From the NCBI GenBank assembly GCA_963621725.1, contig CAVFEY010000003.1, forward strand, positions 3,327-67,326: 64,000 nucleotides of DNA, in the 5' to 3' direction. The DNA is from Firmicutes bacterium AF25-13AC. GTDB lineage: Bacteria > Actinomycetota > Coriobacteriia > Coriobacteriales > Coriobacteriaceae. Below, one piece after another: positions 1,302 through 59,777 of this stretch. A program made the translations under genes and the position numbers. The notes under the pieces are model-generated. The model ran no database searches. It was not told the origin of the DNA and saw only the letters and a list, made by a program, of their open reading frames with translations. Each line of letters opens with the position of its first letter. The first letter of the stretch is position 1.

Positions 1302-3672
1302 CGACAACGCGCTGGTGGTGGCGCTCGATACCTCGACCGACATGCTTGCCTGCGCGGCAAGCTGGATTGATGGACAGACGGGCGAGACGAAGCTCGTGAG
1401 TGGCGACCACATGTGCCGCCGTCACGCCAACGTTGAGCTCGTGAATACCGTTGATGGCGTGCTGGCTCAAGCCGGTCTGGATCGCAGCGATGTTGGTTGC
1501 TATGTGGTCGGCCGCGGCCCGGGGTCCTTTACGGGTGTGCGCATCGGCATCTCCACTGCCAAGGGCCTCGCGCGCGGTGCCAATGTTCCGCTGCTGGGCG
1601 TGTCGACGCTCGACGCTTGCGCTTGGACGGCGTGGAAGGCTGGCGTGCGCGGCAAGCTTGGTATCTTGGCCGATGCTATGCGCGGTGAGGTATATCCGGC
1701 GCTGTATATGCTGGTCGATGAGGGTCCCGAGCGTCAATTTGAGCGCGAACACGTGGTCAAGGCCGCCGTGGCGCTCGATGAGTGGCGCCGAGCAGCGGAC
1801 TGGGACCAGGTTCAGCTGACCGGTGACGGTCTCGTGCGCTATGGCAAGCTGCTGGGTGAGGACGAGACCGCCCGCTGCGTGGAGCGCGACCTGTGGTGGC
1901 CTTCGGGCGAGGGCTTGCTGCTCGCGCACGCTGCGGGTGACGGCGATCCGGCCCGCGTCCTGCCGATTTACACGCGCCTTTCGGATGCCGAGGAAAACGA
2001 GCGCAAGCGTCTTGGTCTTGCCGAGAGTGCGCAGAGCGAAATTACGGGCGTTGCCGATGAGCTCGCCGGTCGTCATCTGCAGTTCCGTCCCATGGGCGCG
2101 GCGGATGCCGAGGGCGCGAGCGCGCTGGAGGCCGCCTGCTTTGAAGGTGTCGGACACGAGGCGTGGACGCCGGGCATGTTCCTGTCCGAACTGGGCGAGG
2201 ACGTCGCTGCGCCGCGTAGTTGGTGGGTAGCACACGACGACGGCAAGCTGCTGGGCCTTGCCGGCGGTATGGTCGTGGACGGTGATGTGCAGATTCTGGA
2301 TGTCGCCGTCGACCCGGCACATCGCCGTGAGGGCATTGCCCGCAAGCTGCTGTCGCATGTGAGCTATGATGCCCAGATGCTCGGCTGCACCACGGCTTCG
2401 CTCGAGGTCGAGGACGGCAACGAGGGAGCGATTGCGCTCTATAACGCTCTGGGCTTTACCGAGGCAGGACGGCGCCGCGGCTACTATGGTGCCGGCAAGG
2501 ATGCCATCGTCATGACGGCTCCGCTGCCCCTGGTGCTTCCGGTCGACAATGCTTCCCCAGAGCCGACGGCGGCAGAGCAGCGCGTATGGCCGCTGCCTGC
2601 GCCTAGGCGCTCCGAGGGGGAGCGTGCCGAAATTGAGCATCGCCGCCTAGTGCTCGCTATCGAGAGTTCCTGCGACGAGACGGCTGTGGCGATTATCGAT
2701 GCGGATGGCAATATGCTGGCTAACCAGGTGTCGACACAGATTGATTTCCATGCCCGTTTTGGCGGCGTGGTGCCCGAGATCGCCTCGCGCAAACACGTTG
2801 AGGTGATTGTGAGCGTCGTGGATGCGGCGCTCGAGGATGCCGCAGCATCGCTTGGTCTTGAGGGTGGAGCCATTGCCCCCAGCGAGCTTGCCGCCGTGGG
2901 CGTGACACAGGGTCCGGGCCTAGTGGGCGCCCTCGTGGTGGGCGTTGCCTTTGCCAAGGGCTTTGCGTATGCTGCCGGCAAGCCGCTCGTATGCGTCAAC
3001 CATCTGGAGGGTCATCTGTTTGCCAACCTGTTGGCGCAACCCGACCTCAAACCGCCGTTTATCTTCACGCTTGTCTCGGGTGGGCACACCATGCTCGTGC
3101 ACGTGAAGGCGTGGGGCGACTACGAGGTGCTTGGTGAGACGCTCGACGACGCTGTGGGCGAGGCCTTCGACAAGGTAGCCAAGGCGTTGGGTCTGGGCTA
3201 TCCCGGTGGCCCCATCATCTCCAAGCTGGCCGAGACAGGCAATCCCCGCGCGATCGATTTTCCTCGCGCGCTTAACAGCAGGGGAGATTATCGTTTCTCG
3301 CTTTCGGGTCTTAAAACGGCCGTGACGCTCTACATTGAACAGGAGACCAAGGCCGGGCGCACGATTCACCTGCCCGATCTGGCAGCTTCGTTTGAGGCAG
3401 CTGTCTTTGACGTGCAGTACAAGAAGGCCAAAAACGCATTGCACGCTACCGGATGCAAGGAATACTGCATCGGCGGCGGCGTCTCGGCCAACCCGCATCT
3501 GCGCGAGATGATGATCAAGAAGCTTGGACGTCAGGGGATTCGCGTAACGGTGCCGCCTCTTTCGGCATGCACCGACAACGCTGCCATGATCGCGGAGGTT
3601 GCCCGCCGTAAATTCGACCGAGGTGAAATCTCGCCGTTCGACGTCGACGCCGATCCGAACATGACGCTGTAG
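1288..3672 (+). CDS. tsaD: fused TsaB (YeaZ) / RimI-type GNAT acetyltransferase / TsaD (Kae1) protein
   Basis: One uninterrupted frame. N-terminus: VVALDTS...GPGSFTGVRIGISTAKG (TsaB). Middle: ILDVAVDPAHRREGIARKLL (GNAT). C-terminus: LAIESSCDETAVAI...SGGHT...GGGVSAN (TsaD). ATG at 1288 is preferred over the TTG at 1270 in the track. Confidence 0.85.
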   Translation: MSLHNDNALVVALDTSTDMLACAASWIDGQTGETKLVSGDHMCRRHANVELVNTVDGVLAQAGLDRSDVGCYVVGRGPGSFTGVRIGISTAKGLARGANVPLLGVSTLDACAWTAWKAGVRGKLGILADAMRGEVYPALYMLVDEGPERQFEREHVVKAAVALDEWRRAADWDQVQLTGDGLVRYGKLLGEDETARCVERDLWWPSGEGLLLAHAAGDGDPARVLPIYTRLSDAEENERKRLGLAESAQSEITGVADELAGRHLQFRPMGAADAEGASALEAACFEGVGHEAWTPGMFLSELGEDVAAPRSWWVAHDDGKLLGLAGGMVVDGDVQILDVAVDPAHRREGIARKLLSHVSYDAQMLGCTTASLEVEDGNEGAIALYNALGFTEAGRRRGYYGAGKDAIVMTAPLPLVLPVDNASPEPTAAEQRVWPLPAPRRSEGERAEIEHRRLVLAIESSCDETAVAIIDADGNMLANQVSTQIDFHARFGGVVPEIASRKHVEVIVSVVDAALEDAAASLGLEGGAIAPSELAAVGVTQGPGLVGALVVGVAFAKGFAYAAGKPLVCVNHLEGHLFANLLAQPDLKPPFIFTLVSGGHTMLVHVKAWGDYEVLGETLDDAVGEAFDKVAKALGLGYPGGPIISKLAETGNPRAIDFPRALNSRGDYRFSLSGLKTAVTLYIEQETKAGRTIHLPDLAASFEAAVFDVQYKKAKNALHATGCKEYCIGGGVSANPHLREMMIKKLGRQGIRVTVPPLSACTDNAAMIAEVARRKFDRGEISPFDVDADPNMTL

Positions 3673-3684
3673 TCGCAAAGGCGC

Positions 3685-3819
3685 GGTCCCCGGCCGGAGG
3701 GGCCGGATATAAGGTTTCCTGCTCTACAGTCCTGCGCAAGACGAAGGCCACATTAAGTGGCCTTCTTTGCGTGCGGAACTCGCGATAAACCTTATATCCG
3801 GCCCCTCCGGCCGGGGACC
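3685..3819 (+). repeat. family-1 structured palindromic element, copy 1 (32-bp perfect arms + conserved core)
   Basis: Arms GGTCCCCGGCCGGAGGGGCCGGATATAAGGTT / exact reverse complement flank the core TCCTGCTCTACAGTCCTGCGCAAGACGAAGGCCACATTAAGTGGCCTTCTTTGCGTGCGGAACTCGCGATAA. Starts 12 nt after the tsaD stop. Confidence 0.9.
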
Positions 3820-3962
3820 TTTCTGTATCGATATAGCTTCTGAGCTGGTTTGGCGTCGACAACGTCCAGCAAGATTAACAAGCCAGCGTCGAATTTCCGG
3901 CGTGCTTTAGCTGAAAGAAAAAGTTGGTGTGCGGAGCTTTGCTCCGCACATTTGGGACGGGA

Positions 3963-4115
3963 GCCCCCGAGAGCGGCGGGAGCCGGGCGGCGCATATGAA
4001 CTTTATCGCGAGTTCCGCACGCAAAGGAAAGCACTTAATGTGCTTTCCGTCTTGCGCAGGACTGTAGAGCAGGAAAGTTCATATGCGCCGCCCGGCTCCC
4101 GCCGCTCTCGGGGGC
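3963..4115 (-). repeat. family-1 structured palindromic element, copy 2 (42-bp perfect arms, inverted orientation)
   Basis: The reverse complement carries the same core, with inner hairpin GGAAAGCAC-ATTAA-GTGCTTTCC. Arms GCCCCCGAGAGCGGCGGGAGCCGGGCGGCGCATATGAACTTT / exact reverse complement. Confidence 0.9.
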
Positions 4116-4409
4116 ATCTCTCATGCAAAAACTTTTGTTGGGTAAAGTCCGAGGTCAGTGGCGTTTTATACCGAGAAATTCAAAAAAAGTTGAAAATTCA
4201 TTACATATTTGCGTTGACTTTAGGCAACTAAAGTTTCATACTCCTTTTCATCCACTGGGGGATGTGAACACGCACGGATCGTTCACATCATGATTGAAGA
4301 GGATTTCTCAGACATGTTCACGCATCAGCTAAACATTATCAGCGTAGTAATTATCTGATGCGGGTTAGCACATACAGCTAGCCCGTACGATAACGGGCGG
4401 CTGGTGAAG

Positions 4410-4449
4410 ATGAGGGCCGTCGAGCGCAACCGACGGCCCTCATTTTTAT
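4410..4449 (+). terminator. intrinsic-terminator-like hairpin immediately upstream of the cstA RBS
   Basis: ATGAGGGCCGTCG-AGCGCAAC-CGACGGCCCTCAT followed by TTTT. cstA's GGAGGA RBS follows about 20 nt later. Confidence 0.6.
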
Positions 4450-4482
4450 GTCTGAGTAGTTCTTTTTAGAGGAGGAAATGTA

Positions 4483-6372
4483 ATGAACGGAGTTTTGCTC
4501 ATGGTTGTGGCCGCGGCGGTGCTCGCCTGCGGCTATCTGGGCTATGGCCGATGGCTGGCCAACAAGTGGGGCGTTGACAAAGAGGCCCTCACGCCGGCCA
4601 AGCGCATGAAGGACGGCAACAGCTTCTCGCCCGTCTCCGCCTTCACCGCGTTCTCGCACCAGTTCAGCTCGATCTGCGGTGCTGGCCCTGTTACGGGTAC
4701 GATCGTCGCCATGGCCTTTGGCTGGCTGCCCGTCGTGCTCTGGGTCCTCGTCGGCGGCATCTTCTTTGGCGCCGTCCACGACTTTGGCGCCCTGTACGCT
4801 TCGATGAAGAACAACGGCAAGTCGCTCGCTCAGCTCATCGAGAAGTACATCGGCAAGACCGGCCGTCGCCTGTTCCTGCTGTTCTGCTGGCTGTTCTGCA
4901 TCATCGTCATCGCCGCCTTCACCGACATGGTCTGCAAGACGTTCATGTTCACCCCGGCCGTTGACGCTTCTGGTGCTGCTACCGGTGCCATCGACTTCAT
5001 CAAGTCCTATGCCGCCGGCTGCGCTGGTACCATCTCCATCCTGTTCACCTTCGTCGCTATCGCCTTTGGTTGGGCCCAGAAGAAGTTCAACCTCACCGGC
5101 GCTGCCGAGTTCGTCACCGGCGTGGTCCTCATGGTTCTCATGTTCGCCGTCGGTATGCAGTTCCCGGTCTACCTGGATAAGTTCCAGTGGTTCGCCGTCG
5201 TCATGGTCTACCTGGTCTTCGCTGGCGCTATGCCCATCCAGATGCTCAAGACTCCGCGTGACTACCTCACTTCCATCATGATGATCGTCATGATCGTCTG
5301 CGCTGTCCTCGGCATCGTCGTCCTGGGCGTCAACGGTCAGGCCACTATCACCGCTCCGGTCTTTACCGGCTTCTCCACTGCCTCCGGCATGATGTTCCCG
5401 GTCCTGTTTGTCTCTGTCGCTTGCGGTGCTCTCTCCGGTTTCCACAGCCTCGTTTCTTCCGGTACATCCTCTAAGCAGGTCGAGAAGGAGCAGGACGCCG
5501 TCAAGGTCGGTTACGGCGCCATGATCGTCGAGTCCTTCGTCGGCATCCTTGCCATCATCGTCGCCGGCATCATGTTCTCCGATATGAACACCGCCGGTAC
5601 CGGCGCCCTCAACGCCGGTGTCGCTTCCACCCCGTTCCAGATCTTCGCCGCTGGCATCTCCCGCGGTATGCAGGCCTTCGGTGTTGACGGCACGCTCGCT
5701 ACCGTCTTCATGACCATGAACGTCTCCGCTCTGGCCCTGACCTCGCTCGACGCCGTCGCCCGCATCGCCCGCACTTCGTTCTCTGAGTTCTTTGCCCAGA
5801 CCAACGACGCCCTGGCCATCGAGTCCAAGGCCGGCTACATGAAGGTCCTCGGCAACCCCTGGTTCGCCACGGTTGTCACCCTGCTTCCTGGTCTCGCCCT
5901 CGCTTTTGGTGGCTATGCCAACATCTGGCCGCTCTTTGGTGCTTCCAACCAGCTGCTCGGCGGTATGACCATGATCACCCTCGCCGTGTTCTGCAAGTGC
6001 ACCGGCCGCAAGGGTTGGATGCTCTACGTGCCCGTCGTCTTCCTGCTCTGCTGCACCTTCACCTCGCTGGTCCAGAGCGCCATGGGCTGCATGACCGCCG
6101 TCCAGGCCTACGGCTTCTTCGGTACCATCCCGGCTACCGCCACCACGGCCGCCGTCTCCGTCGCCGCCACCAAGGGCCTGCAGCTCGTCTTTGCCGTCCT
6201 GCTGATGGTCCTGGGCCTCATCGTTGCCGTCAACTGCCTCAAGGAGTTCTTCGGCAAGGAGGCCGGCTCCATGCCCGACGAGGAGCCCGAGTGGTCCGAG
6301 ATGGGCAAGGCCGAGTATGGTCGTGCCGCTGCTGCTGAGGCTCCTGCCGACGCTGAGGCCGCCAAGGCTTAG
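4483..6372 (+). CDS. cstA: carbon starvation protein A family peptide/pyruvate transporter
   Basis: 629-aa polytopic membrane protein. The N-terminus MNGVLLMVVAAAVLACGYLGYGRWLANKWGVD and overall pattern are typical of CstA. GGAGGA RBS. Confidence 0.9.
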   Translation: MNGVLLMVVAAAVLACGYLGYGRWLANKWGVDKEALTPAKRMKDGNSFSPVSAFTAFSHQFSSICGAGPVTGTIVAMAFGWLPVVLWVLVGGIFFGAVHDFGALYASMKNNGKSLAQLIEKYIGKTGRRLFLLFCWLFCIIVIAAFTDMVCKTFMFTPAVDASGAATGAIDFIKSYAAGCAGTISILFTFVAIAFGWAQKKFNLTGAAEFVTGVVLMVLMFAVGMQFPVYLDKFQWFAVVMVYLVFAGAMPIQMLKTPRDYLTSIMMIVMIVCAVLGIVVLGVNGQATITAPVFTGFSTASGMMFPVLFVSVACGALSGFHSLVSSGTSSKQVEKEQDAVKVGYGAMIVESFVGILAIIVAGIMFSDMNTAGTGALNAGVASTPFQIFAAGISRGMQAFGVDGTLATVFMTMNVSALALTSLDAVARIARTSFSEFFAQTNDALAIESKAGYMKVLGNPWFATVVTLLPGLALAFGGYANIWPLFGASNQLLGGMTMITLAVFCKCTGRKGWMLYVPVVFLLCCTFTSLVQSAMGCMTAVQAYGFFGTIPATATTAAVSVAATKGLQLVFAVLLMVLGLIVAVNCLKEFFGKEAGSMPDEEPEWSEMGKAEYGRAAAAEAPADAEAAKA

Positions 6373-6531
6373 TCGACCTGACGAGTTGAACGTCACATCT
6401 ATATGACTCGGAAAGACCGGGTCCGCGACTTCGCGGGCTCGGTCTTTTTTCATGCAAAAGCGGGTGACGCTCGAGTGTTCTCGCAGATGTTTTGCGTGGA
6501 TAAGGGCGCGCGTTGTACCATATAGACGTAT

Positions 6532-8730
6532 ATGTGTGCATATGAAAGGGGCCCCGTGGCCAAGACGGTATATTCCGATAACCAACAAAATGTCGATGCT
6601 CTGGCTGAGCGTCTGAGCGGACAAACGTCGCTTTCTGCCGAGCGGGCAAAGCTGGTTGCCTACGACCTGCTTTGCCGCAAGGCGCTCAAGATTAAGTCGA
6701 GTGCGCTGGCGCAGATTTTCCGCTCCGTCGATAAGGAGTGCGACACCAAGGCGATGCGCGATGAGCTTATCGCGGCAAAGATCGTGACCAAGATCGAGGG
6801 TAGCGGCATTAACGGGCGCCCGGCGTTCTATACCATCAATGCCGAGATCCGCGATGCCCAGGAGCAGCCTGCCGAGTCCGTCGAGGATTTTGTCGTCGAG
6901 GATCCCGCTGACGTGCCTGCTGTGGAAGAAGTTGCCCCGCGTGAGCATGTCGATACCGATGAGTTGCTCGATGAGAACGTCGTGCGTGCCTTTACGGCCA
7001 AGGCAGGACGCGGCGGTTTTGGCGGGGGTGGCAAGCGCGATGCGCAGCGCCGCGCCCAGCAGGAGCGCTTCCGTCGCGCCGTTGCTCGAAAGGGTGAGAC
7101 GGATGCTGAGGCTGTTGAGACCGAGGTTGCTGCCGAGTCGCAGAAGCCCGCGAGGGAGCAAAAGCCCGTGGAGGCCCAAGAGCCCAAGCGTCGTCGCGGT
7201 GCTCACTTTAAGACTGCACAGCAGGATGCCGCGCGTGAGGTTGAAGAGTCTTCTGAGGTTGCAGACGATGTTGAGGGGTCTGCCAAGAAGGCTCCGGGTT
7301 CGTGTCGTCCCGGCCGCGGTTTTGCGGGACGCGCGTATCCCGTAAAGCATCAGGAGAAGGGCGAGTCGGTTTCGACCACCCAGGACGAGAAGGCCGTTGA
7401 GCCGGAGGCTCGCGAGCAGAAGCCTGTTGAGCCGCAGCTTGAGGTTGATGCCGAGGCCAAGGGCCAGCAGCCTACTGATGAGCGGACGGAGCAGGGCGCG
7501 TCGAGCAAGCCTCGCCGCCGTCGCCATCGTGGGGGCCGCAGTTCCCATGCCGAGACTGCAACCGAGAAGACCACGCCGCAGAACGAGGATGCGAAGGCCG
7601 AGGTTTCTTCGGGGCAGCCTAAGCGCCAGCCGGCGAAGGAGAGCAAGTCCGTTCGTCCGCAGAAGCAGGCATCTATGCCGAAGCGCGAGCGCAATTCCCA
7701 AGGCGATTCTAAGCGCAAGTCTCAGAAGAAGCCGGAGTCTGCCGCAGCAGATACTGCTGCCCAGCAGCCCAGGCCGGACGTTCACGGCGAGGTCTCGGCG
7801 TTTGCCCTTGCCCGCGTTTTAGGCAGGCAGCTGCTCAAGGTTGTCCCTACGCCCACGGCGCTCTCTAAGATCAAGGAGCAGCAGACACAGATCGTAAAGG
7901 TTGAGGGCAAGGACGGCAAAAAGGCTCCGCAGCGCACTCAGCACAACGAGATGTCCAACCGCAAGATTGCCGAGGAAATCGCAATCATCCAGGCTTGGAT
8001 CGAGCAGAACCGAGGTGCCGATACGCCGGTTGCCTCGCGCCGCCAGCGTGCCTACCAGATCTTTAACGACGAGAAGGCTTTTGACGGCAAGCACGGTGAG
8101 CGCCTGATCAGGCGTATGACCGAAAAGGGCATCAGCATGCAGGCGATCAAGGTCGCTCCCAATCGCCCCGTGCACTTTACGGGTTTCTTTACGCTGGGTG
8201 CCGACAAGCCGTTCATTATGGTCGAGAACCTGGACACCTACGACGAGATCGTCAAGCTGCTGCGTGGCCGCAAGCACGCCAAGCTCTTTGGCATCAAGGT
8301 GGGCGGCGTGATTTTTGGCGGCGGATGCAAGGCAAGCGTCTCGCATGCCCTGGACGATTATCTGGCCGAGATTGGCTATCGCTTTAACTACGTCTACTAT
8401 GTGGGCGATATCGACCGCGAGGGCGCGCGCATCGTCGAGCAGGCTCGCAATGCCAATGTGGTTGAGATTCGCCTGCATGCCGGCATGTACCGCGCCATGC
8501 TCGCCGAGCATAGGCGTCGCGTGAAGGCCGGCGGCGCGTGCGAGCCCGCTGCTGCCAACCAGGGCGTGCCGCAGAACCTGGCGGCGACGATTAAGGATCT
8601 GCCCATGGTTACGCGCGTGCAGTTCCGCAACGTGCTGCGCGAGGGCGGGCGTATTCCGCAGGAGATCCTGATGACCGCAGACTATCGGGATGGCGACTCG
8701 GGAAGCTTCGACCGCATGCTCAACAACTAG
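6532..8730 (+). CDS. hypothetical protein with a ~330-aa charged disordered middle and a JetD/DUF2220 (Toprim-like) C-terminal domain
   Basis: The C-terminal ~170 aa contains FIMVENLDTYDE ... YVGDIDREGARI ... IPQE, resembling the Wadjet JetD C-terminal Toprim fold. The middle is K/E/R/Q/A-rich with repeated AREQKPVE. GTG at 6556 with GAAAGGGG upstream is a likely true start. Confidence 0.6.
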   Translation: MCAYERGPVAKTVYSDNQQNVDALAERLSGQTSLSAERAKLVAYDLLCRKALKIKSSALAQIFRSVDKECDTKAMRDELIAAKIVTKIEGSGINGRPAFYTINAEIRDAQEQPAESVEDFVVEDPADVPAVEEVAPREHVDTDELLDENVVRAFTAKAGRGGFGGGGKRDAQRRAQQERFRRAVARKGETDAEAVETEVAAESQKPAREQKPVEAQEPKRRRGAHFKTAQQDAAREVEESSEVADDVEGSAKKAPGSCRPGRGFAGRAYPVKHQEKGESVSTTQDEKAVEPEAREQKPVEPQLEVDAEAKGQQPTDERTEQGASSKPRRRRHRGGRSSHAETATEKTTPQNEDAKAEVSSGQPKRQPAKESKSVRPQKQASMPKRERNSQGDSKRKSQKKPESAAADTAAQQPRPDVHGEVSAFALARVLGRQLLKVVPTPTALSKIKEQQTQIVKVEGKDGKKAPQRTQHNEMSNRKIAEEIAIIQAWIEQNRGADTPVASRRQRAYQIFNDEKAFDGKHGERLIRRMTEKGISMQAIKVAPNRPVHFTGFFTLGADKPFIMVENLDTYDEIVKLLRGRKHAKLFGIKVGGVIFGGGCKASVSHALDDYLAEIGYRFNYVYYVGDIDREGARIVEQARNANVVEIRLHAGMYRAMLAEHRRRVKAGGACEPAAANQGVPQNLAATIKDLPMVTRVQFRNVLREGGRIPQEILMTADYRDGDSGSFDRMLNN

Positions 8731-8737
8731 GGCGTTC

Positions 8738-8874
8738 GGCCCCGGGAGAGCGGGGACACCGGCTTAGGTTTCCTGCTCTACAGTCCTGCTCACGACGGAG
8801 GCCACATTAAGTGGCCTCCTGTTCGTGCGGAACTCGCGATAAACCTAAGCCGGTGTCCCCGCTCTCCCGGGGCC
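8738..8874 (+). repeat. family-1 structured palindromic element, copy 3 (34-bp perfect arms)
   Basis: Arms GGCCCCGGGAGAGCGGGGACACCGGCTTAGGTTT / exact reverse complement. Core has compensated changes (GGAGGCCAC-ATTAA-GTGGCCTCC). Starts 7 nt after the stop at 8730. Confidence 0.9.
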
Positions 8875-8998: not shown

Positions 8999-9058
8999 GC
9001 CGGCACTTGGAGACGTTCCTTTAGTGCCGGCACTTTAGGAACGTCCCCAAGTGCCGGC
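8999..9058. repeat. 21-bp-arm hairpin with nested AGTGCCGGCACT palindrome
   Basis: GCCGGCACTTGGAGACGTTCC ... GGAACGTCCCCAAGTGCCGGC (one mismatch). The loop TTTAGTGCCGGCACTTTA is itself palindromic. Confidence 0.8.
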
Positions 9059-9247: not shown

Positions 9248-9322
9248 TGGCTGGGACGGAGGGATTCGAACCCCCAACAGCCGGCACCAAAAACCGGAGT
9301 TCTACCGTTGAACTACGTCCCA
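9248..9322 (-). tRNA. tRNA-Gln (anticodon TTG)
   Basis: Reverse complement TGGGACGTAGTTCAACGGTAGAACTCCGGTTTTTGGTGCCGGCTGTTGGGGGTTCGAATCCCTCCGTCCCAGCCA. It has a U1-A72 acceptor, anticodon loop TTTTGGT, T-arm GGGGG/TTCGAAT/CCCTC and an encoded CCA. Confidence 0.9.
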
Positions 9323-26745: not shown

Positions 26746-26876
26746 GGTCCGGGACCGCGGGCGAGGCATAAGGTTGCCTGCTCTACAGTCCTGCGCAAGA
26801 CGAAGGCCACATTAAGTGGCCTTCTTTGCGTGCGGAACTCGCGACCAACCTTATGCCTCGCCCGCGGTCCCGGACC
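26746..26876 (+). repeat. family-1 structured palindromic element, copy 4 (30-bp perfect arms)
   Basis: Arms GGTCCGGGACCGCGGGCGAGGCATAAGGTT / exact reverse complement around a core almost identical to copy 1. Starts 19 nt after the stop at 26726. Confidence 0.9.
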
Positions 26877-26954
26877 TTCCGGGTTCGGGGCGCGACGCAC
26901 CGGACTGGGTTATCTGAATAAATATGGCGAAGGCCCCTTTCGGGGCCTTCTTTT

Positions 26955-29183: not shown

Positions 29184-29256
29184 GGGCCGGGGTGCCTGCC
29201 TTGTTTTGAAAAGTGGGCTCCGCGAACTTCTCAAAACAAGGCAGGCACCCCGGCCC
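29184..29256. repeat. 26-bp perfect-arm hairpin
   Basis: GGGCCGGGGTGCCTGCCTTGTTTTGA - 21 nt - TCAAAACAAGGCAGGCACCCCGGCCC, 55 nt after the LacI stop. Confidence 0.85.
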
Positions 29257-30673: not shown

Positions 30674-31371
30674 ATGCCACCCCGGTTTATATGCGCATTC
30701 GACGCCGCATCGAGGAACGTATCGAGCGCGGTATATATCCCACGGGTTCCATGATTCCGTCCGAAAAAGACCTCGCCGAGGAATTTGGTACGACACGCTT
30801 GACCATCCGAAGCGCTGTCGATGAGCTGGTTCGGCGCGGGCAGATTCGCCGTGTTCGGGGAAAAGGTGCCTTTGTGGCGCAGAAAGTACCTGCTTTTTTT
30901 GAACGCACGGTCGGTTTCCGTGAATCGGTCCGTGCTTCGGGCGGCGAGCCGTCCGTCCGTATTCTCGCGCGTTCCAAGCGTTATGCGGGGCCATATTACG
31001 CCGACCTGTTTGGCATCGCCGAGGACGACCTGCTCTATTCCGTTCGACGCCTGAACTGCATAAACGGTAGCCCCGTATCGATTGAGACGGCGCTGATTCC
31101 CTGCCTGCTGTTCCCAACCATCGAAGATATTGACGTGTCGGTCTTCAGTTTGTACGAGACCTATGAGATGCTGGGCCGAAAGCCAGCCATGGCACAGGAA
31201 AAGCTCGATATCGAAGCGCTGGGCGCACGAGATGCCGGCCTCCTTGGACTGGAACAGGGCGATCTTGTTTTGCTTTTGGAATGCGTGAGCTATGACGCGA
31301 GCGGTCAGGCTATCGAGTATGTAAAGTCCTTCAATCGTGGCGATACGGGCGGCTACACCTATACGTACTAG
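30658..31371 (+). CDS. GntR family (HutC/UTRA) transcriptional regulator, paralog 2
   Basis: wHTH IPSEKDLAEEFGTTRLTIRSAVDELVRRGQIRRVRGKGAFV plus a UTRA-like C-terminus. Overlaps the upstream gene by 16 nt. Confidence 0.8.
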   Translation: MAETVDATPVYMRIRRRIEERIERGIYPTGSMIPSEKDLAEEFGTTRLTIRSAVDELVRRGQIRRVRGKGAFVAQKVPAFFERTVGFRESVRASGGEPSVRILARSKRYAGPYYADLFGIAEDDLLYSVRRLNCINGSPVSIETALIPCLLFPTIEDIDVSVFSLYETYEMLGRKPAMAQEKLDIEALGARDAGLLGLEQGDLVLLLECVSYDASGQAIEYVKSFNRGDTGGYTYTY

Positions 31372-47079: not shown

Positions 47080-47667
47080 ATGGGCCGCTATGCCGAGGTA
47101 ACCCGTAAGACGGGGGAGACCGATATTGCCGTCAAGCTCGACCTGGATGGAACCGGTACGTGCGATATCTCGACCGGCGTGCCGTTTTTCGACCACATGC
47201 TCAACGCCTTTGGCCGCCATGGCCTGTTTGATCTGACGGTACACGCGGTGGGCGACGTTGAGGTCGACGCGCACCACACCGTCGAGGATACGGGCATTGT
47301 GCTGGGCGAGGCGTTTTGCCAAGCGTTGGGCGACAAGGCGGGCATTACACGCTTTGCCGATGCAGCGATTGCCATGGACGAGACACTCGTGATGGCTGCC
47401 GTGGACATTTCGGGTCGCGGCCAGGCCTACTGCGAGCTGCCCGTGCCGACCGAGCGCGTGGGCAGCTTCGATACCGAGCTGGCCGTTGAGTTCTTCTATG
47501 CCTTCGCACGCGATGCCAAGCTCACGCTGCACGTGCGCGAACTGGCGGGCGGCAACTCGCATCACATTATCGAGGCCGCCTTTAAGGCCGTGGGTCGCAC
47601 GATGCGCCACGCCTGCGAGCTCGATCCCCGCGTGCAGGGCATCCCCAGCACCAAGGGCTCACTGTAA
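47080..47667 (+). CDS. hisB: imidazoleglycerol-phosphate dehydratase
   Basis: RKTGETDIAVKLDLDG, HHTVED and GNSHHIIEAAFKA motifs. Confidence 0.9.
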   Translation: MGRYAEVTRKTGETDIAVKLDLDGTGTCDISTGVPFFDHMLNAFGRHGLFDLTVHAVGDVEVDAHHTVEDTGIVLGEAFCQALGDKAGITRFADAAIAMDETLVMAAVDISGRGQAYCELPVPTERVGSFDTELAVEFFYAFARDAKLTLHVRELAGGNSHHIIEAAFKAVGRTMRHACELDPRVQGIPSTKGSL

Positions 47668-47778
47668 CCTGCCAAAAAGGGACAGGTTTATTTTGGCAGG
47701 TTTTATCTGCGGGAATGCTGTCTCATGTGGTGGGTGAACGTTTAACCGACCAAAATAAACCTGTCCCTTTTTGGCAGG
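47668..47778. repeat. 111-bp palindromic insert between hisB and hisH (29-bp perfect inverted repeats)
   Basis: CCTGCCAAAAAGGGACAGGTTTATTTTGG (47668-47696) and its exact reverse complement (47750-47778). It starts at the first base after the hisB stop. Confidence 0.9.
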
Positions 47779-47804
47779 TTTTGAATGGGAAAAGGGAGGG
47801 TCGC

Positions 47805-51139: not shown

Positions 51140-51208
51140 AAGTTGCGGTGAAATAGGGACTGTTTAAGCGCTTCATCAGGCAAAACAATCCCTATTCCAC
51201 CGCAACTT
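51140..51208. repeat. family-2 palindromic element, copy A
   Basis: AAGTTGCGGTGAAATAGGGA - loop - TCCCTATTCCACCGCAACTT, in the convergent gap between hisE and hisK. Confidence 0.85.
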
Positions 51209-57868: not shown

Positions 57869-57936
57869 AAGTTGCGGTGAAATACGGACTAAAATCGCCC
57901 TTTCGGGCACCAAACAGTCCCTATTCCACCGAAACT
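57869..57936. repeat. family-2 palindromic element, copy B
   Basis: AAGTTGCGGTGAAATACGGACT - loop - AGTCCCTATTCCACCGAAACT. Confidence 0.8.
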
Positions 57937-59420: not shown

Positions 59421-59426
59421 CAACCT

Positions 59427-59495
59427 AAGTCGCGGTGGAATAGTTCCTAAATGGGCTGGTAAACTGCCAAAACAGGAACTATTCCACCGCAACTT
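59427..59495. repeat. family-2 palindromic element, copy C
   Basis: AAGTCGCGGTGGAATAGTTCCT - loop - AGGAACTATTCCACCGCAACTT. The distal arm is compensated relative to copies A and B. Confidence 0.85.
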
Positions 59496-59496
59496 A

Positions 59497-59777
59497 GAGT
59501 CCCACCGGCATCTAAAAGAAGCGAGCCCGCATCCCTGAGGAACACGGGCTCGAAAGCTCCATATGGTAGGGGCGGTGGGACGTCCGCGCATTTGCTGCGC
59601 AAATACGCACCGGCTTCGGCCGCCTGTCGGCGCCCTCGCCGGCTCGCTACGGACGCTGCGCGTCCGCTTAACGCTCGCCCCCTCGCGGGTTCGAGTCCCA
59701 CCGGCATCTAAAAGAAGCGAGCCCGCATCCCTGGGGAACACGGGCTCGAAAGCTCCATATGGTAGGGGCGGTGGGAC
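59497..59777 (-). repeat. 196-bp-period duplication carrying the tRNA-Leu 3' end and terminator, with a GC-rich insert homologous to the tRNA-Gln-linked one
   Basis: The 85-bp blocks 59497-59581 and 59693-59777 are identical except for one base. Between them lies GTCCGCGC...CCCCTCGCGGGTTCGA (59582-59692). Confidence 0.85.
59709..59749 (-). terminator. terminator of tRNA-Leu (a second copy lies at ~59513-59553)
   Basis: Minus strand CGAGCCCG-loop-CGGGCTCG followed by CTTCTTTT. Confidence 0.6.

Follow-up and report, generated by a model that had tools for sequence, protein, structure and literature searches.

A palindromic repeat in the Collinsella window

The window, by which we mean the whole 64,000-nt stretch of contig CAVFEY010000003.1 analysed here, derives from a host that is a Collinsella of the aerofaciens group. 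It carries four copies of a palindromic intergenic repeat of roughly 130-150 bp, hereafter called the element, each consisting of two long arms that enclose a conserved core (Table 1). Copy 1 starts 12 nt past the stop codon of tsaD, which encodes a TsaB-RimI-TsaD fusion. Copy 2, some 370 nt upstream of cstA, has a small terminator hairpin on one side and the promoter region of cstA on the other. Copy 3 starts 7 nt past the stop codon of a hypothetical gene, and copy 4 starts 19 nt past that of a PcsB/CHAP-like gene, where it sits between convergent genes with murB on the minus strand.

An earlier note on this DNA had placed the plus-strand copies 7-19 nt past stop codons, in agreement with the measured gaps, and it was also right on the four locations. 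The core 17-mer CTGCTCTACAGTCCTGC matched the window four times, compared with 0.21 matches expected by chance, and an inverted-repeat finder returned the same places, with arm pairs that are 100% complementary and 69 nt apart in every copy. A profile search of the window found no fifth copy. In all four copies, the arms are indeed perfect within a copy and diverged between copies: past the inner ~9 nt they cannot be aligned, and the core is near-identical. Of the arm lengths given in the note (32, 42, 34, and 30 bp), the second and third stand, and the other two are 33 and 31 bp, owing to a difference of one base in the counting of the last pair. Folding predicted a single rod-like hairpin for each window copy, with energies of -102 to -111 kcal/mol and z-scores of -13.7 to -15.7 relative to shuffled sequences.

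Table 1. Positions of the element copies and of other features mentioned in the text (in the window, unless another locus is named)
Feature	Position	Strand	Description
Copy 1	3685..3819	+	left arm 3685-3717 (33 nt), core 3718-3786, right arm 3787-3819
Copy 2	3963..4115	-	arms 3963-4004 and 4074-4115 (42 bp), core 4005-4073; inverted relative to copy 1
Copy 3	8738..8874	+	arms 8738-8771 and 8841-8874 (34 bp), core 8772-8840
Copy 4	26746..26876	+	arms 26746-26776 and 26846-26876 (31 bp), core 26777-26845
Hairpin between copies 1 and 2	3928-3950	-	10-bp GC-rich stem, minus-strand T-tract (CCAACTTTTT)
Terminator behind copy 4	26929-26950	+	canonical, shared with murB
cstA	4483-6372	+	
Hypothetical gene before copy 3	6556-8730	+	724-732 aa
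Antisense open reading frame	4378-7785	-	1135 aa, without Pfam match
Repeat family AACCTGCCAAAAAGGGACAGGTTTATTTTGGCAGGTT	47666-47780		inverted pairs
Third repeat family	51140-51208, 57869-57936, 59425-59497		arms AAGTTGCGGTGAAATAGGGAC.../...CCCTATTCCACCGCAACTT
Long hairpin	29184-29256		31-bp arms, 97% complementary, 11-nt loop; ~55 nt past a plus-strand gene
Near-palindrome	8999-9058		60 bp (90%)
tRNA	9251-9322		
Sister pair, L138 (NZ_OY725717.1)	30942-31045, 31205-31307		perfect arms of 28 and 23 bp, differing
Tip CCCTCTCGCTCACGGCTGCGCAGGGTCGCGCGAGGC, L059	2746-2833, 3685-3770		
Tip CCCTCTCGCTCACGGCTGCGCAGGGTCGCGCGAGGC, L068	3754-3843, 4667-4752		
Tip CCCTCTCGCTCACGGCTGCGCAGGGTCGCGCGAGGC, L079, L091, L100			

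The hairpin between copies 1 and 2 lies 12 nt past copy 2 on that copy's own strand (3950-3928) and, judging from its T-tract, reads as a minus-strand terminator directly downstream of copy 2. No minus-strand gene or promoter was identified upstream of this copy. Copy 4 ends 52 nt before its canonical terminator. Across the family, a separate T-tract terminator within 160 nt downstream was present for 7 of 96 copies.

The orientation of the surrounding genes was taken from a codon-usage caller trained on annotated coding sequences. It replaced an analysis based on open reading frames (ORFs), which had been misled by long spurious antisense ORFs. At loci within 45 nt of a stop codon, the element lies sense to the gene in seven cases and antisense in one, and its orientation is mixed elsewhere; most elements at a distance from stop codons are antisense or located in promoter regions. 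With respect to replication no orientation bias was found, as the flanking GC skew was positive in 55 cases and negative in 44. The window itself contains a minus-strand ORF that overlaps both cstA and the hypothetical gene on the plus strand. This is a spurious antisense ORF of a kind common in GC-rich DNA, and it misleads ORF-based analyses of context.

The anatomy of the element was deduced from an alignment of 33 diverse apices and a consensus fold. The core comprises 69 nt and is imperfectly paired, as exemplified by copy 1. A 2-nt internal loop separates the arm from the base of the core, which is a 3-bp helix, UGC/GCG, that covaries to UAC/GUA. Above this helix follow an asymmetric internal loop with UCUACAG on its 5' side, an invariant helix, AGUcCUG/CGGaACU, in which a C.A mismatch is conserved and one pair is a U.G wobble, and a variable middle helix that occurs in three subtypes (CTCACGACG/TGTTCG in copy 3). 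The top is formed by a freely covarying apical stem of 8-9 bp; the covariation described for it earlier (GAAGGCCAC, GGAAAGCAC, GGAGGCCAC) is correct. The closing loop, ATTAA, had been called invariant, which is true of the window; across the family it is present in 188 of 195 copies, with ACT or others among the remainder.

Conservation extends into the inner 8-9 bp of the arm, with the consensus TTAAGTTT/AAACTTAA. Arm positions 1-8, counted outward from the core, carry 0.9-1.8 bit, and those past position 9 carry 0.2-0.5 bit. The outer arm has a GC content of ~80%, compared with ~60% for the genome. Double changes were found at 18 of the 29 pairs of the consensus fold (alifold), and the plus-strand hairpin is better paired than the minus-strand one owing to the conserved U.G pairs and the C.A mismatch. 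The conservation profile suggests that the selected, sequence-conserved module is an apex of ~87 nt, made up of the 69-nt core and 8-9 bp of inner arm. A reading of the core as coding sequence was rejected, since 68-nt variants and the variable arm lengths break the frame that the three main subtypes keep open over 69 nt. A promoter within the core is not supported either, as no sigma-70-like match was detected.

When one genome per GTDB species was scanned for the exact pattern, the element appeared at no fewer than 120 loci, almost all of them from Collinsella and a few from obviously contaminated bins. These loci provided 111 complete copies with 79 distinct left arms. Two loci on CAVHBE01 (L017, L045) show a Collinsella element with typical arms in an archaeal bin, named 'Methanobrevibacter smithii', which is likely the result of bin contamination. 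The C. aerofaciens sequence NZ_OY725717.1 has 10 matching places in 900 kb, a low density, without any annotation at the element. This record (L124, L138) is labelled 'plasmid 6', with 899,693 bp, and typed as non-mobilizable; its genes include recA, ftsK, der, rny, lexA, and tsaD, so that the record evidently belongs to the chromosome. The sole match in phage and plasmid collections was one Collinsella record mislabelled as a plasmid, and a scan of viral contigs returned one chance match and two copies of an element locus designated locus 3.

The Rfam search suggested by the earlier note returned, for the whole window, only two tRNAs at the gathering threshold, and a permissive search of positions 3600-4200 gave only spurious sub-threshold matches; neither setting returned anything relevant to the element. 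Full-text literature searches, one with the core sequence included, found no description of the element. The family is previously undescribed, and the view of the note that it belongs to no named family agrees with the lack of an Rfam, phage-record, or literature match.

Arm evolution and signs of probable arm-to-arm copying

The 111 complete copies contain 3737 arm pairs, 64 of which are mismatched, corresponding to ~98% pairing. The mismatches comprise 18 wobbles on the plus strand (GT+TG), 17 wobbles on the minus strand (CA+AC), and 29 cases of transversion type. There is no G:U excess among them, and the spectrum is strand-symmetric. We compared 343 orthologous pairs, i.e., copies with the same flanks in different genomes. 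Identity was 0.90 and 0.87 for the two 60-nt flanks, 0.82 for the arms, and 0.93 for the core, the last value being inflated by the search pattern, which fixed 28 of the 69 core nucleotides. Both alleles were perfect yet mutually different in 143 of these pairs. Alleles downstream of tsaD have arms of 33, 42, and 44 bp, and alleles at another locus have arms of 34, 41-44, and 48 bp, all of them perfect. Thus, indels are mirrored in both arms. We conclude that the arms drift at about the neutral rate while staying ~98% paired. Drift at or above the neutral rate combined with such pairing is not what compensatory evolution under selection would yield, because a lone mismatch in a stem of 35-48 bp with 80% GC is nearly neutral, and because the crossing of deleterious intermediates is slow.

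More than 190 copies have kept the mismatches, bulges, and wobbles of the core, and this across species with otherwise unalignable intergenic DNA. The cores of L125 and L131, for example, are intact, with TsaD proteins 86-88% identical to that of the window. A pressure that perfects pairing should erase these imperfections, yet they persist, from which we infer purifying selection on the imperfect apex. Any function of the element would then reside in this apex.

Several features are direct signs that one arm is copied from the other. At L049, TCCTGCGCAAGACG, the normally imperfect side of the middle helix at 5', has been swapped for the exact reverse complement of the 3' side, resulting in a 22-bp perfect palindrome around an intact loop. 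At locus 3, we examined 80 metagenome contigs that had been picked by ≥98% identity of the upstream protein and, hence, independently of the element. One arm site occurs there in three states: C/C in the majority, C/T in L146 and L154, where a left-arm C meets a T in the right-arm complement, and T/T in L166, L173, and others. The latter two represent intermediate and completed compensation, whose direction is that expected if the wobble-containing hairpin strand is corrected from its 5' base. Allele c of the same locus resembles allele b in its outer arm and allele a in its inner arm and core. Although a mosaic, it is perfect over 38 bp; an exchange on one side must therefore have been followed by symmetrisation.

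Base composition points in the same direction. The part of the 5' arm that lies beyond the conserved inner 12 nt is rich in G, with 303 G versus 225 C when one allele per locus is counted (p=8e-4); the corresponding difference between T and A is not significant. As the arms are palindromic and the G excess occurs on both strands, neither transcription nor core orientation can cause it. A G-rich 5' arm is the bias predicted for 5'-templated intrastrand template switching (PMC8794818), and template switching homogenises and extends the arms of inverted repeats and inverts their spacers (PMC8794818, PMC8604942, PMC5941160). The marks of quasi-palindrome correction, namely templated perfecting, mirrored multi-base and indel changes, and intermediates, are found in L049, the locus 3 series, allele c, the mirrored arm lengths, and the 5' G excess.

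A comparison of orthologous sites revealed that presence or absence of the element is polymorphic between relatives. In the tsaD-cstA region, both copies are missing from L128/L129 (TsaD 79% identical) and L133 (85%) and present in L125 (86%) and L131 (88%). In L207 (~1948-1975), the locus 3 element was deleted between two CCGC microhomologies, leaving ATTCCGC joined to TCTCCCGGGGCC with a remnant of 12 nt of the right arm. This loss looks like hairpin-promoted slippage and not like precise excision. At least 15 locus 3 contigs (L139, L140, L151, L153, and others; ~1950-2150) have the left arm and left half-core replaced by an unrelated 165 nt, consisting of a terminator-like hairpin and a 125-nt imperfect hairpin. 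The replacement joins the intact right half exactly at the apical loop, with junction bases that vary between contigs. The apical loop as a general breakpoint hotspot was discarded, as such breaks were seen only at locus 3 and in one other remnant.

Chimeric copies that combine the left arm of one locus with the right arm of another were encountered in several metagenome-assembled genomes (MAGs) and metagenome contigs (L164, L179, L019, L105, L061, L062, L168, L188), some of them with the core inverted; L164 and L179 have different partner alleles. They may be genuine inversions or deletions that run through the 69-nt core, or artefacts of short-read assembly. L075 has the element in opposite orientation in one genome at one locus, and at L115 and L081, copies 2 kb apart in a segmental duplication have swapped inner arms. 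The genes between the paired copies of L115 were considered as a partner and rejected, as they encode an ECF sigma factor and its anti-sigma factor and no transposase. Of the 70 anchored locus 3 contigs, 24 end within the element. Overall, the element appears to drive rearrangements.

Origin of the perfect arms

The element is best explained as belonging to a superfamily, specific to Collinsella, of palindromic ('foldback') repeats dispersed between genes. It is neither a classical MITE (miniature inverted-repeat transposable element) nor a demonstrated REPIN. The arms probably stay perfect because one of them is copied from the other during replication, with copies and alleles also exchanging sequence, and not because of selection on an RNA duplex. 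According to this model, the outer 15-40 bp of each arm would serve as a GC-rich clamp that can drift freely in sequence. The nascent strand would fold back and copy one arm from the other (intrastrand template switching, equivalent to quasi-palindrome correction), so that a change in one arm is either erased or passed to the other. Homologous exchange between copies or alleles would reshuffle cores and inner arms, after which template switching would re-symmetrise the product. Concerted arm evolution at neutral rate, mirrored indels, missing wobble bias, and compensation in both its intermediate and its completed form are steps of this course that we observed, as are one palindromised core, mosaic alleles, presence/absence differences, and loss at microhomologies. 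Replication would be the setting of the copying. The core mismatches presumably persist because selection removes perfected copies, and the core may serve as a recognition module for a trans-acting factor on the single-stranded hairpin, be it DNA or RNA. More tentatively, and with considerable doubt, one may think of a hairpin-specific factor of the Coriobacteriia that recognises the apex in trans, either a single-stranded DNA transposase/recombinase or an RNA-binding/processing protein. If so, the family would constitute a new replicator or regulatory system, a kind of 'inside-out' REPIN with a conserved tip and free-drifting, self-repairing stems, in whose tip the mismatches would be actively upheld in the face of a measurable mutation pressure towards perfect pairing.

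Several observations weigh against this model. No transposase or partner gene was found. An IS200 TnpA query, which recovered IS200 at 100% identity in the plasmid collection and is thus valid, gave no tblastn match to an IS200/Y1 homologue in 1.29 Mb of Collinsella sequence, comprising element neighbourhoods, one 64-kb window, and one 50-kb chunk. Direct repeats indicative of a target-site duplication were absent from the junctions of ~20 independent loci, and there was no case of arms common to non-orthologous copies, so that recent transposition of the whole unit is not demonstrated. Among the newest polymorphisms of locus 3, uncompensated changes (~7) outnumber compensated ones (~2), which shows that copying is not immediate and leaves room for a contribution of selection. 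The palindromised core of L049 is a single observation from one MAG, and many of the chimeric copies may be assembly artefacts. Finally, arms of 80% GC and a 7:1 sense bias near stop codons suggest that the hairpin itself is useful.

As a rival explanation, the element could be a structured 3'-untranslated region (3'-UTR) RNA, in which selection at the RNA level maintains both a duplex of 30-48 bp, as RNase III substrate or exonuclease block, and a protein-binding site at the apex, with the covariation of the arms as its outcome. Three of the four window copies begin 7-19 nt past a same-strand stop codon, sense copies prevail over antisense ones by seven to one where a stop codon lies within 45 nt, and the same-strand T-tract terminators behind copies 2 and 4 would place these copies inside a transcript. 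The double changes at 18 of 29 pairs, the U.G pairs and C.A mismatch favouring the plus-strand hairpin, and the maintenance of 80% GC in the arms fit in as well. The arms themselves, however, argue against this explanation, which we regard as unlikely. Their mismatches show no G:U excess (18 versus 17), ~98% pairing is kept at neutral drift although a single mismatch in a long GC stem is near-neutral, and indels are mirrored exactly instead of being tolerated as bulges. Moreover, distant copies are mostly antisense or in promoter regions, L075 carries the opposite orientation at one locus, Rfam provides no match, and template switching accounts for the covariation without RNA. The earlier note had named RNA-duplex selection and DNA-level arm copying as the two alternatives. 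Neutral drift, mirrored indels, the lack of wobble bias, the compensation series, and L049 favour the second, and the first left no footprint in the arms; RNA selection is an unlikely cause of their perfection. An additional RNA role of the element as a whole is possible on the basis of its position and fold. The 3'-UTR part of the 3'-UTR or terminator role proposed in the same note is thus possible in view of the 7:1 sense bias near stop codons, and the terminator part is not supported, as no T-tract follows the arms.

A different origin of the arms would be given if only the ~87-nt apex, i.e., the core with its TTAAGTTT/AAACTTAA ends, were mobile and inserted into the loops of existing GC-rich hairpins downstream of genes, the outer arms being host sequence. 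We consider this improbable, more so than RNA selection. Conservation does fall sharply at 8-9 nt outward of the core, and otherwise different alleles of a locus have the same outermost ~8 bp of arm, which are specific to that locus (GGCCCCGG at locus 3, GGTCCCCG downstream of tsaD). Locus 3 combines flanks of 97% identity with differences in the arm interior and the core subtype. Elements also lie 3-33 nt past stop codons, where hairpins are expected, and the genomes lacking the element have short GC hairpins behind the tsaD stop codon. The outer arms, however, measure 15-40 bp and have no T-tract, whereas the canonical terminators of this genome have stems of 9-13 bp. We found no empty site at which the outer arms form a simple hairpin, no unit of apex and inner arm recurring identically at two loci, and no mobilising enzyme. 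The allele differences are equally well explained by recombination between alleles, as in the mosaic allele c. A classical MITE, that is, a deletion derivative of an insertion sequence (IS) with DDE transposase, mobilised in trans via its terminal inverted repeats, would likewise be small, intergenic, multi-copy, palindromic, and variably present between species. We hold it to be very improbable, because the termini vary between copies and the conserved part is the centre. Furthermore, target-site duplications were lacking at ~20 loci, and no half-cores flanking a gene or ORF occurred in 0.9 Mb of element loci. The earlier statement that the element is not a classical MITE is therefore supported by its unconserved ends, the missing target duplication, and the failure to find a parent IS in those 0.9 Mb.

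A REPIN is an intergenic hairpin of ~100 nt that is multi-copy, long-lived in one lineage, and subject to compensated changes across the hairpin (PMC3116915). The Collinsella element shares all of these features and, like REPINs, decays to solo remnants. The ends of REPINs (REP 16-mers), however, are invariant and their middle is variable and compensated, whereas the Collinsella element has an invariant middle and variable ends. It also lacks a conserved GTAG-type tail, and no RAYT/Y1 gene was present in the 1.29 Mb searched. Correia (CREE/NEMIS) and ERIC/IRU repeats are similar as palindromic intergenic repeats of 100-160 bp with a distinctive centre and as sources of rearrangements and assembly breaks, but have conserved terminal inverted repeats and, in the case of Correia, a TA target duplication, neither of which occurs here. 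Long hairpins form when any of these repeats is transcribed, and Correia transcripts are RNase III substrates. In the model favoured here, the Collinsella element is functionally analogous to REP/REPIN, ERIC, and Correia repeats and built the other way round.

The attC sites of integrons conserve structure over sequence, have arms specific to each site, reside directly 3' of genes, and contain functional mismatches and extrahelical bases. The element resembles them in each of these respects, namely in hairpin structure conserved above sequence, arms of its own at each site, position behind genes, and mismatches. In attC, however, the outer R''/R' boxes are conserved, the centre is variable, and the sites form cassette arrays next to an integrase. 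The outer ends of the Collinsella element are unconserved, its copies are dispersed after housekeeping genes, and no integrase was seen in a search that was not exhaustive. Intrinsic terminators, including the 'I-shaped' actinobacterial hairpins without U-tract, are comparable as GC-rich hairpins just past stop codons, but differ from the Collinsella stems of 31-48 bp with their conserved 69-nt insert and no T-tract. An intrinsic terminator was rejected, as no T-tract follows the right arm and the canonical terminators downstream of copies 2 and 4 are separate. The mechanism proposed for the arms is that of quasi-palindrome mutagenesis (Ripley model, hotspots studied in the Lovett laboratory, template switches in RNA genes), with which the element shares templated arm correction, compensation of multi-base changes and indels, a 5' G excess, and occasional spacer inversion, features documented for quasi-palindromes and template switching in PMC8794818, PMC8604942, PMC5941160, and PMC7202029. 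Quasi-palindrome mutagenesis, however, is a general process and not an element family; in Collinsella it would act on a dispersed repeat family with an apex protected from it, an unusually clean natural read-out.

Collinsella is among the most prevalent actinobacterial genera of the human gut, and to our knowledge its repeat content is undescribed. The elements fragment Collinsella metagenome assemblies and mark sites of apparent inversion and deletion. With hundreds of independent hairpins and an imperfect core as internal control, the family offers a rare natural read-out of arm copying by template switching. The contrast between arm and core allows mutational causes of compensatory evolution to be told apart from selective ones, which has long been a question for RNA stems, and cautions that perfect covariation alone is no proof of a functional RNA. 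Should the core have a binding partner, the family would represent a new REP-like system in Actinomycetota.

Sister families and neighbouring repeats

Other Collinsella hairpins follow the same design of a conserved tip and variable perfect arms, several of them with GTCCT...GCGGAA or GCTC...GGAAC. The two copies of one sister family in L138 have the core ATTCCATGCTCAAACATTCTCGC...GCGCGTGGAAC. They are convergent around a hairpin/terminator with a 22-bp stem, between a glycosyltransferase gene and dut, and each is sense to its own gene and located 10-17 nt past the stop codon. A second family, with the tip CCCTCTCGCTCACGGCTGCGCAGGGTCGCGCGAGGC, is represented by seven copies with seven different perfect arms of 19-29 bp, and further sister forms occur in L126, L054, and L001. 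Rfam searches of the sister-family loci returned only tRNAs and an FMN riboswitch.

Other repeats in the window have conserved arms. The family AACCTGCCAAAAAGGGACAGGTTTATTTTGGCAGGTT occurs in inverted pairs, with arms that are conserved from copy to copy; BLAST returned 53 hits for it in the Collinsella sequence analysed, window copies included, and it is often found near the element. The third repeat family, with 22 BLAST hits (window copies included), contrasts by its conserved arms with the variable arms of the main element. The window further contains a long hairpin with nearly complementary arms and a near-palindrome that adjoins a tRNA and is conserved in L123 and L035 (Table 1). A conserved leader, …CAGCTAAACATTATCAGCGTAGTAATTATCTGATGCGGGTTAGCAC…GGGCGGCTGATGA…, was detected ~150 nt upstream of cstA in L125, L128, L131, and L133. 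At its end, immediately ahead of the start codon, is a strong T-tract terminator hairpin. The leader is present with or without the repeats and may be regulatory.

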